From positions 3,616,001-3,680,000 of the forward strand of contig CAWIAD010000002.1 of the NCBI GenBank assembly GCA_963833985.1: a stretch of DNA of 64,000 nt, in the 5' to 3' direction. Position 1 is the first letter of the stretch, and every line of letters starts with the position of its first letter. Shown piece after piece: positions 27,001 through 30,000 of the stretch. The position numbers were made by a program. The stretch is from an uncultured Planctomycetaceae bacterium. GTDB lineage: Bacteria > Planctomycetota > Planctomycetia > Isosphaerales > Isosphaeraceae.

Positions 27001-30000
27001 TCTCTCCGCAATCGTCGTTTACGCCCTATTCCGCAGCCTCAATCTGCACCTGCCGACCAACGTGGTGCTCTACGTGATCACGATGCCCCTGGGTTTCTGG
27101 TTCTTCTTCCGAAGCCTGTGGGTCACCTTCCGCCCGAGGAATGCCTGATTCAGCCAACCCTGCCAAATAGCGTTGGTGAGATTGGACGCGGTGTCAGGAG
27201 GTGGGCAAAGTCATGGAATCGGTCTTCCCATTCGTGTTGCTCGGGCTTGCCGTGGGACTCGTGATCTGGGGCGTCAACAACTTTTCCGTGGAGGAGAGAT
27301 ACACGAGACTTTTCGCCACCAGTGCCACGGCTGTCGGCGTGGGGGTACTGGGCTGGTTTTTCACGACGTATGGCAAGGACGCTCTCCTATATGCAGTTTT
27401 CTCGGGACTTCTTCTCGTCGGGCTGTTGCTCTGGGGGCTGATCGATCCCATTGTGGGTAGGCGACTTGCCAGAGTCTTTGCCGTGATTGCGATGGGACTG
27501 GGAATGGGACTGCTGCTATGGGGGATCATTGGGGCAGTGAGTGGAGAACGTCTTCGCCCGCCCTTTGACACGCAGATCATCACGGTGGTCAGCGAGGCGA
27601 TTGGTTGGGGAGCAGGGTTCCTCACGGGAGGCATCGTCGCCCTTGTGCTGTCATTCCTTGGGAAGACCAAGAAGGGTGGTCCGCAAGGGTCCGAGCCAAC
27701 TTCGGAACCACCGCATCACCCCGAATAGCCTTCCTGGGATGATCAACCTCTGTCACCAATGGGTGGCTCGCATCGCAGGCGAGAGGCCATCCCCGCTCTG
27801 AGGGAGTGCTCCTACCAGAGACCAGGAAAGTCAAGAGAAGCACACCTCTTACTACCAACCCAAGACGTTTGCCCGCTTAGTCATTTCTTTTCCTAAGAAG
27901 ATTCGTTATACTTCAATTGGTTGGTCTGACGACTGAGTAAGCACCTCGGGTTCTCATTGAATCACTTTCTGCTTCCCCCTCTCGCCTCTCCCACCTTCTG
28001 GGTCCTTTCTCATCGACCCAGAAAGGACTCAACGGGTCGTAGACCTTTGCCACAAGGAGAACCTCGTGGGAAAGAGATTATATATTGGAAATTTGACCTC
28101 TTCGGTATCCTCATCGGAACTGCAAGACTGGTTCGCACCGTATGGGACCGTCCAGAGCGCCCAGGTCGTCTCAGACCGTGACACGGGTCGCAGCAAGGGG
28201 TTCGGCTTCGTTGAGATGGACACGTACGCCCAAGCTCATGCGGCGATCCAGGGACTCCACGACCTTGAGCATGAGGGGCGGTGGCTCATCGTGAGCGAAG
28301 CCAAGTCACGGGAAGATCGTGGTGGCGGGGGTAGCATTGATGGCAGTGATCGCACTGGCGGCGGTGGAGGCTATGGAGGTAGTGACGGTCGCTAGTATGC
28401 TCTTCAGGGAAGTCCCTTTTCTTCTCGAAATTGAAAGCGTACCGAGGGTCGTCAGCCTTTAGCTTCGGAGTGCGATCATGGGGAAGAATCTGTACGTAGG
28501 CAACCTCACCGGCAACGTCACGAAGTCCGACCTGGAGACGATGTTCTCCAAGTTCGGCACGGTTCAGAGCGCCCATCTCATCACACATCGTGACACGGGG
28601 CGCAGCAGGGGGTTCGGCTTCGTCGAGATGGACACGGACGCCCAGGCTCACGCAGCGATCCAAGGACTACGCGATCACGAGCATGGCGGGCGTCGTCTCA
28701 CGGTGTACGAAGCCAAGCCTGGGGATGATCGTGGTGGCGGCGGCGGCGGCGGCGGTGGAAACGGCGGTGGCTCTGGAGGTAGGAGAGAACGGTCGAGTGG
28801 ACTTGAACGGAAGCCTCTTTCCTCTCGACCCTGAAAGCGTCCCGATAGGCGCTCGTCATCAAACCGGACAAGGGGGACAAGCCCTGTCGGGCAACCCTCA
28901 CGTCTTTGATCCTGTGCTGAGAGGAATTCCCCACGGCTGAGTCTGGCTAGGGAAGCACCCTGAGTGCTGTCTATCACTCAGGACAGCGACCAGCCGACCC
29001 TCGTGATCGCCATATCCTTGTGAATGAAATTAGCGGCAAGAAAAGCACACCTCTTACTGCCAACCCTAGAAGTTCGCCCGCTCAGTCATTACTTTTTCTA
29101 AGAAGCTTCGTTATACTTCAATAGGTTGGTCTGACGACTGAGTGAGCACCTTGGGTTCTCATCGAATCGCTTTCTGCTTTCCCCTCTCGCCTCTCCCACC
29201 TCTTGGGCTCCTTTGCCAGCCCCTTTCTCACCGACCCAGAAAGCATTCAACGGGTCGCAAGGTCTTTACCTCAAGGAGAACCCCGTGGGAAAGAAATTGC
29301 ATGTTGGGAATCTGACCTCTTCGGTAGCTTCATCGGATCTGCGAGAGTGGTTCGCCCCGTTCGGCACCGTGCAGAGCGCCCTGGTCATCTCAGACCGAGA
29401 CACGGGACACAGCAAGGGTTTCGGTTTTGTCGAGATGGACACGGACGCCCAGGCTCAAGCAGCCATCCACGGACTCCACGATCAAGATCACGACGGGCGG
29501 CGGCTCATGGTGAGTGAAGCCAAGCCTCGTGTAGCCCGAACCCGAGGCTTCGCTGGTGGTCGCCTTGACGGCAGTGCTCGCACTGGTCGTGGTGATGGTT
29601 ATGGAGCCGGTGGCGCGCAGCCGTATTGATCGTCCTCCATCTCGGTGGGTTCCGAGTGGATCTCTCGTAGGGTCCCTCGATTCGTCCGATTTCGCCGATG
29701 ATTCGGGGCTCTCGGTTGGCTCACCGTCTTCGTGGTCTCTCGCCTGCCGACCATGAGGATCGGAGGTATCTGAACCAATCAATCAAACTGGACTAGAGCA
29801 GGCGGAATGAGTCCTGTGCTATCCCGCCGTCCACTCCTGATCAAGTCTCCTTCTGGGAGCCATCAACATGCAGTTGATTTAACCACCATGCATGGTTCGG
29901 AGCCTCAAGTGAACAGTTACCCTGCCAGCGAACAAAAGATAAGGGATGTTGAGAGAGGTCGAATCTGCAACGCAATCCTTCCGATGCCGCGTGCAAAGAC

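Follow-up and report, generated by a model that had tools for sequence, protein, structure and literature searches.

A conserved pseudoknot-bearing mRNA leader before one subfamily of RRM genes in Planctomycetota, a candidate cis-regulatory RNA

A shared leader before RRM genes

RNA-level control in Planctomycetota is almost unexplored. A first-pass annotation of the genome of an uncultured Planctomycetaceae bacterium (family Isosphaeraceae) had flagged one and the same leader before nine genes for RRM-domain proteins, which raises two questions: is this leader a real structured RNA, and what does it do for the genes behind it? The flagged copy lies in a 64,000-nt stretch of contig C2 that was analysed as a whole (the window, to which plain coordinates refer; those preceded by C1 or C2 count along the contig). 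It spans 27919-28065 on the + strand, directly 5' of a GTG-started RRM ORF at 28066-28395. Comparative sequence analysis confirmed a conserved structured mRNA leader before RRM genes. The elements of this copy and of its neighbours, with the evidence for each, are as follows.

27904..27912, +: extended -10 promoter box, TATACT at 27907-27912 (TANNNT spacing statistics)
~27919, +: putative transcription start (distance from the -10 box)
27919..27937, +: 5' box; GGUUGG is the 5' strand of the long-range helix P1a, UGAG/CGAG the 5' strand of P1b (pair counts)
27941..27972, +: P2, an irregular inner stem-loop with GCA/UGC outer pairs and GGUUC/GAAUC inner pairs (pair counts)
27979..27995, +: conserved pyrimidine box CUCUCGCCUCUCCCACC with the 3' strands of P1b (CUCG) and P1a (CCCACC) (alignment A2, pair counts)
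28000..28005, +: remnant of hairpin P3 (alignment gap; the leaders that start at 29124 and 30923 have the complete hairpin)
28005..28039, +: H-type pseudoknot; S1 CUUUC 28005-28009/GAAAG 28021-28025, S2 CGACCC 28014-28019/GGGUCG 28034-28039
28040..28065, +: pyrimidine-rich spacer (69% pyrimidine) and Shine-Dalgarno (SD) sequence AGGAG at 28055-28059 (sequence)
28066..28395, +: RRM gene of 109 aa with Gly-rich tail and GTG start (PF00076, E 1.5e-20); a diverged young duplicate, dN/dS ~0.2 against its sister copies
28408..28834, +: 3' half-leader with damaged S2, fused behind the preceding stop codon (R1 25.8 bits), then an RRM gene at 28478-28834 (PF00076)
28802..28845, +: duplication debris, with remains of P3 and of one half of a pseudoknot and not followed by a gene (91% identical to 31004-31047)
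29112..29629, +: second whole unit; -10 box 29112-29117, leader 29124-29284, pseudoknot 29223-29257, RRM gene 29285-29629 (114 aa, the same as C2:3645285)
30911..31424, +: third whole unit; -10 box 30911-30916, leader 30923-31079, pseudoknot 31019-31053, RRM gene 31080-31424

The genome holds 12 RRM genes, of which nine carry a whole leader, two a half and one, of the MAKRLY type, none. All nine whole copies were found where the first-pass annotation had placed them, with scores of 82-138 bits from a covariance model (R1) whose training set includes all nine. The two half-leader genes differ in what is left: the gene at 28478 has the 3' half, and C2:2772743 has the promoter and a decayed 5' part. 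Three partial copies were located with R1, at 28408-28480, ~28802-28845 and C2:2772586-2772745.

Several details of the original description changed. The 14-nt box GGUUGGUCUGACGA, which had been called invariant, is exact in six of the nine copies and in 33 of 100 Isosphaeraceae leaders; GGUUGG forms the first letters of 67 of these 100. The length of about 170 nt counts the promoter in, and the transcribed part measures about 160 nt (145-178 nt, median 160, in 100 leaders). The flagged copy itself has lost most of hairpin P3. Two RRM genes were said to have been missed by the gene caller. One of them, C2:3645285, is an intact 114-aa ORF; the other, C1:1100344, is frameshifted after codon 33 in the assembly behind an intact leader, and is either a pseudogene or an assembly error.

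Link to one RRM subfamily

Loci for comparison were chosen by protein and not by RNA. All 60 Isosphaeraceae genomes searched have RRM genes, and the best 150 of the 306 matches were listed. In 29 of 29 genomes of relatives, the best RRM gene, picked by protein alone, has the leader. Adding 80 further loci from the listed RRM matches gave 123 distinct genes, a sample that leans towards close homologues. A MAFFT alignment (A2) was made of 100 of them; 12 leaderless genes, two with the 3' half only and nine odd ones were left out, and R1 later scored six of the odd ones (18-61 bits) and missed three.

In a tree of the coding sequences (246-nt alignment, locus L001 left out, many inner nodes weak), the leader-bearing RRM genes group in a single clade, separate from the leaderless genes. 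The nine copies thus represent one inheritance and not nine inventions. The leader is limited to this GKKLY-type clade and is absent from 12 MAKRLY-type genes. Nine leaderless MAKRLY-type orthologues have a short motif of their own, GGAGAGCCTG, ~25 nt before the ATG. Elsewhere in this genome, R1 found no copy before any other gene, two cold-shock-domain matches included, and no leader precedes its cspA-like gene.

A pattern for the pseudoknot alone, searched over all species genomes, gave at least 114 loci, 106 of which directly precede an RRM ORF. At four of the at least 114 loci the leader is whole but no RRM gene follows, and one further locus is a chance match. At one leader-only locus, the next gene is homologous to the small hypothetical gene found behind an RRM gene here (29807-30247); the RRM gene seems to have been deleted there.

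Because it occurs only before one RRM subfamily, on the strand of these genes and at a fixed distance from the start codon, the leader is most likely cis-acting. A cis-acting candidate regulatory leader, as first proposed, thus remains the best reading of the coding-strand fold, the promoter-like box, the single RRM subfamily and the pseudoknot-pattern loci before RRM ORFs.

Promoter and transcription

Of 100 leaders, 95 have a TANNNT hexamer 4-9 nt upstream of the GG box, 84 of them at a distance of 6-7 nt, against 46 of 783 control windows; G stands at -2 in 72%. Transcription would accordingly start at the GG box, 6-7 nt after the -10 box. Contigs of relatives that span the pseudoknot and the coding region were found in RNA libraries (n = 4) from three studies; they are a small share and carry no information on start or strand. 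The RRM genes behind the leader mostly start with GTG or TTG.

A CTATC/CTACC word (e.g. 30887-30891) ends 18-20 nt before the -10 hexamer in 47 of 95 leaders, a -35-like position. Scanning this genome for CTATC with a -10 box as a regulon motif gave ten scattered matches and nothing coherent.

Pseudoknot

The pseudoknot had been drawn as CUUUCU/AGAAAG crossing UCGACCC/GGGUCGA. Its H-type fold held up, with two crossing stems, a short L1, an L2 of 0-2 nt, a longer L3 and compensatory changes; its core is reduced to 5 bp in S1 (CUUUC/GAAAG) and 6 bp in S2 (CGACCC/GGGUCG). The outer U-A pair of S2 is formed in 39 of 100 leaders (35.7 when shuffled) and the sixth S1 pair in 63 (63.1 when shuffled). 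Extra pairs that were considered, namely a seventh S2 pair at either end, a sixth S1 pair and an L1-L3 contact, found no confirmation in a further 78 sequences; in that set the outer S2 pair exceeded the shuffled value (47 vs 36), but it did not in A2.

Over the 100 leaders, 82.6% of S1 cells and 97.2% of S2 cells are paired. A descriptor of the pseudoknot matched 85 of 100 Isosphaeraceae leaders and 17 of 22 leaders from outside the family (15 of the 17 in homologous register, as read by eye), against 12 of 49 upstream regions of other RRM genes and 15 of 200 shuffles. L3 measures 7-9 nt in 70 of the 85 pseudoknots, loops L1 and L3 are without conservation, and 72 of the 85 pseudoknots end 24-29 nt upstream of the start codon.

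The near-invariance of S1 had been a doubt in the first-pass annotation, which more sequences have largely resolved. Double changes were observed (CUUCC/GGAAG, CUCUC/GAGAG, AUCUC/GAGAU, GUCC/GGAC and AUUC/GAAU), at about six separate places in the tree. GAAAG loops have a full S1 partner in 63 of 65 cases; variant loops have one in 17 of 35, where 11 would be expected from the partners of others. Counts for co-occurrence of the S1 strands were 61 and 24 against 11 and 4. At least two clades have lost the two strands jointly while keeping the other parts of the leader, so the pseudoknot is not always needed. Phylum-wide, the sequence of S1 is kept, whereas S2 is rewritten outside Isosphaeraceae with its pairing preserved. 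A stem that stays constant while the other varies by compensation is as expected of a recognised surface.

Two departures from the common form were seen. The S2 hairpin is tandemly duplicated in both RRM leaders of one genome (G208), and in one group of six loci (families f3 and f11) the 5' domain and P3 are kept and the pseudoknot is replaced by other sequence.

Helices outside the pseudoknot

Our fold model consists of P1a (GGUUGG/CCCRCC, with one mismatch), P1b (CGAG/CUCG), P2, hairpin P3 and the pseudoknot; P1 to P2 make up a long, irregular stem-loop at the 5' end. The 39 pairs of the model are formed in 84.5% of cells in the MAFFT alignment, against 79.7% in shuffled alignments (0/500 as high) and 37-56% in slid registers, a figure that kinship inflates. 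P1a and P1b are paired in 90.3% and 90.9% of cells. In P2, the outer pair is A-U in 42 and G-C in 31 of 100 leaders, and 84% and 74% of cells are paired. All seven pairs of P3 show changes on both sides across Isosphaeraceae. Within the helices G-U pairs outnumber A-C (341 vs 124), which indicates that the fold belongs to the mRNA (coding) strand. The leader columns are also more conserved than the four-fold degenerate sites of the genes behind them (identity 0.58 vs 0.40), and 37 of 162 columns exceed 0.8.

P1a appears less sure than the rest of the model. Where its position 1 is A, it faces U in 9 of 12 cases, while U occupies the facing site in 22 of 181 overall. An energy swap between own and other partners was not positive for P1a (81 of 181 better with their own), and ViennaRNA at 37 °C favours P1a in 15 of 100 leaders. 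The 5' box can also fold locally as GGUC-UGAC-GACU; this hairpin uses the same bases as P1a, and the two pairings are exclusive. RNAalifold on the MAFFT alignment recovered S2 alone. In a home-made tree-aware G-test for de novo covariation no single pair was significant (best pair, in S2, E 1.9). No S1 pair ranked in its top 45; the best-ranked pairs include true helix pairs as well as columns linked to subtypes, and the test has low power in near-invariant columns.

Range

Near-confinement to Isosphaeraceae, as first reported, did not stand. R1 matched 25 of 28 Isosphaeraceae genomes and, in the rest of the class, 14 of 92 genomes; the leader also occurs in Phycisphaerae. Outside Isosphaeraceae, 16 of 18 matches lie directly before an RRM ORF and the other two are weak. 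In a draw from the whole phylum, 7 of 140 genomes gave R1 matches; the six matches with E < 5e-5 precede RRM ORFs, and three weaker ones do not. These R1 counts are lower bounds, with 20-23 candidates scored per genome. Among 41 RRM loci from genomes that R1 missed, R1 picked up a weak leader in two, and the descriptor identified the pseudoknot in one more; all others belong to different RRM types. Of the 80 pseudoknot-pattern loci with titles, 77 belong to Planctomycetota, including Pirellulales, Planctomycetaceae and Tepidisphaeraceae; the other three have neither leader nor RRM gene. The pattern gave no match in viral contigs.

A metagenome scan for GGTTGG and an RRM start, which did not require the pseudoknot, gave mostly chance matches. 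Among its 118 loci, 14 are leader-type RRM genes, and all 14 have the pseudoknot, as read by eye. Some 21 RRM genes from the scan lack a pseudoknot, and a -10 box precedes GGTTGG in four of these, not clearly above background. These four RRM genes are of other types and possibly have other leaders with a word shared with Chlorobi-RRM. To judge from these matches, we take the phylum-wide range of a pseudoknot-bearing leader to be real. Cultured carriers are found in Singulisphaera, Aquisphaera, Tautonia and Tundrisphaera.

Relation to known RNAs

The leader matches no Rfam family, in agreement with the first-pass annotation: no match at E <= 1 was obtained over 24000-34000, and scans of this region and 15 loci gave no relevant match, only three chance matches far below the cut-off. 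The closest known RNA is the Chlorobi-RRM motif (Rfam RF01697), described as a candidate cis-regulatory RNA by Weinberg et al. 2010 (PMC2864571). The two are alike in RRM gene context (for RF01697 as given by its name and Cis-reg label), in GGUUGG followed by (U)CUGA, in an irregular stem-loop and in a pyrimidine tract. In contrast, Chlorobi-RRM is described as ~73 nt long, with two hairpins and no pseudoknot, and from Chlorobi only; its GGUUGG pairs with an upstream CCAA, whereas that of the planctomycete leader would be +1 and pairs downstream. The RF01697 model reached its 45-bit gathering threshold in none of 21 genomes, this one included, and had no match in 24000-34000 or in the 15 loci. 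The Chlorobi-RRM 5' hairpin YAGCCAA/GGUUGGCUG was not found, with no conserved CCAA before the box, and only the word GGUUGG(U)CUGA is common to both. Membership in Chlorobi-RRM was rejected because the model test failed and the fold is another.

Other leaders resemble this one by description. Those of the paralogous RRM-1 genes rbpA/B/C of Bacteroides thetaiotaomicron are likewise long (5' UTRs of 122-155 nt) and are reported in a preprint (PMC13370968) to serve auto- and cross-repression that is stronger in the cold: the genes are de-repressed 2.2-3-fold at 21 °C in a triple deletion, with a share of the 5' UTR for rbpC. These belong to another phylum, and the likeness is one of description and not of sequence. 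Cyanobacterial rbp genes also have conserved leader elements on Gly-rich RRM genes (PMC9333190), which, compared by description only, are short sequence boxes and not a covarying fold. Pseudoknots 5' of ribosome sites serve self-repression by nucleic-acid-binding proteins in T4 gene 32, where gp32 nucleates at a pseudoknot that lies upstream of a less structured ribosome-binding site and represses its own mRNA (PMC535899), and in Escherichia coli rpsO, where ribosomal protein S15 binds the pseudoknot (PMC3985624). Their proteins are unrelated to RRM proteins, the RRM leaders have no Rfam match to them, and repression was shown there, whereas it is inferred here. The E. coli cspA thermosensor (PMC4166951, PMC13271884) is a leader of ~160 nt on a small RNA-chaperone gene; two conformations have been shown for cspA, whereas none is predicted for the RRM leader, and again there is no Rfam match.

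Literature searches found no published description of the leader; two possibly relevant supplements, outside their scope, might list such a motif. It is a new RNA of a known kind, and the surprise is limited as structured RRM-gene leaders are already known from Chlorobi. It deserves an Rfam entry, and it marks small RRM genes for annotation. A 2026 preprint poses as an open question whether the leaders of bacterial RRM genes act as thermosensors or as feedback sites. The defined fold, the natural compensatory variants, the natural losses of single parts and the cultured carriers make this question directly testable.

Possible function

Comparison of sequences establishes that the fold is conserved, on which strand it lies, that its place is fixed and that it is tied to one RRM subfamily. 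By analogy with known operators, we hypothesize, at about even chances, that the cis-acting leader sets the output of this RRM subfamily by negative feedback, as a shared translational operator for auto- and cross-repression. The first bases of the mRNA would pair into the long stem-loop, shielding the 5' end. With its end 24-29 nt upstream of the start codon, the pseudoknot would mark the upstream edge of the region bound by the 30S subunit. With less support, surplus RRM protein may bind the pseudoknot and the adjacent pyrimidine-rich strands and hinder initiation, and paralogs that share the leader may repress themselves and each other. Cold would probably raise the set point of this feedback, as for the RRM genes of Bacteroides and cyanobacteria.

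As in autogenous operators, the structure adjoins the initiation region of a gene for a nucleic-acid-binding protein (24-29 nt in 72/85). The feedback operator is favoured because gp32 uses a pseudoknot by a loose initiation region and because the Bacteroides RRM paralogs cross-repress each other partly via long 5' UTRs; we place it ahead of a cold sensor and of a constitutive standby or stability module. Against it stand the loss of both S1 strands in at least two clades whose leaders are otherwise kept, the lack of a significant pair in the tree-aware G-test (best E 1.9), the recovery of S2 alone by RNAalifold and of P1a in 15 of 100 leaders by ViennaRNA at 37 °C, and the four whole leaders without an RRM gene. 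The feedback in Bacteroides is, moreover, described as acting partly at the promoter (PMC13370968).

A protein-independent cold sensor of the cspA kind, in which a low-temperature fold frees the ribosome site or stabilises the mRNA and another fold forms when warm, is a rather unlikely alternative. The length of the leader and the type of gene are like those of cspA leaders, cyanobacterial rbp genes have conserved cold-response boxes in their 5' UTRs (PMC9333190), the 5' box has two exclusive pairings (the local hairpin and long-range P1a), and the 5-bp S1 is marginal and should be favoured by cold. ViennaRNA nearest-neighbour folding, which treats no pseudoknots, predicted no temperature switch between 10 and 45 °C; SD pairing went from 0.77 to 0.73 over this range, with no dominant conserved SD partner. 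Nor is the pairing of the spacer with the SD order-specific. An anti-SD hairpin seen by eye was rejected, as composition explains it (pairing 0.67 vs 0.64 with shuffled spacers). No conserved anti-SD helix of the ROSE or fourU heat-thermometer type was found, with the real spacer above its shuffles in only 60 of 100 leaders and on average a weaker pairing energy than the shuffles. With no conserved helix over the SD and no predicted temperature shift, a simple zipper thermometer is unlikely. In the one planctomycete cold-shock data set found (PMC2754498), csp genes are without cold induction, and Rhodopirellula baltica RB10458, an RRM gene by name, is, as far as that source lists it, only down in heat and in salt.

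Similarly doubtful is a constitutive module, whose 5' stem protects the mRNA and whose pseudoknot and pyrimidine strand together offer ribosomal protein S1 and the 30S subunit a standby site, enabling GUG and UUG starts with a weakly paired SD. The fixed spacing between pseudoknot and start codon fits this, as do GTG or TTG at most starts, and a pseudoknot is reported as essential in standby translation of tisB (PMC7708055). The SD is paired at 0.67 against 0.50 in 400 control genes, which was also counted in its favour. However, such a module gives no account of the occurrence at RRM genes only, nor of the kept sequence of S1 and of the P1 internal loop.

More speculatively still, the marginal 5-bp pseudoknot might sense the capacity of the cell to melt RNA. 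In the cold, or when chaperones are lacking, it would form and recruit the ribosome; RRM proteins would melt it and switch off the paralog family, and the 5'-terminal GGUUGG in common with Chlorobi-RRM could be a cross-phylum signal of RRM mRNAs.

Several riboswitch aptamers have the form of a compact H-type pseudoknot. Binding of a small ligand by the pseudoknot or the P1 internal loop is nevertheless very improbable: the pseudoknot is compact, near the SD and conserved in S1 sequence, but L1 and L3 are unconserved, a metabolic gene is never downstream among the at least 114 pattern loci, and the SD lies outside any conserved helix. Inherited likeness without RNA function, by upstream DNA carried along with duplicated genes or by conserved DNA sites, would suit the single clade, the several young duplicates here and the lack of a pair passing the tree-aware test, but appears largely refuted by the identity of 0.58 vs 0.40, the helices kept by compensation in other families and classes, and the G-U to A-C counts (341 vs 124).

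The RRM gene cluster around the flagged leader

Four + strand RRM genes lie close together (28066, 28478, 29285 and 31080), each with a PF00076 match. Their neighbours within 23878-33598 are six ORFs without a Pfam match, a response regulator (23878), an ICMT-family methyltransferase (25520, minus strand) and a SpoIIE-type phosphatase (32259). The four-gene cluster (27832-31428) arose by duplications, with repeats between 27832-28378 and 29037-29606 (81%), 28408-28770 and 31011-31375 (76%), and 28851-28920 and 30737-30806 (89%). The RRM gene at 31080-31424 is the best conserved copy (dN/dS 0.03-0.07), and the young copies have dN/dS of 0.2-0.26 against 0.01-0.07 in conserved orthologues.
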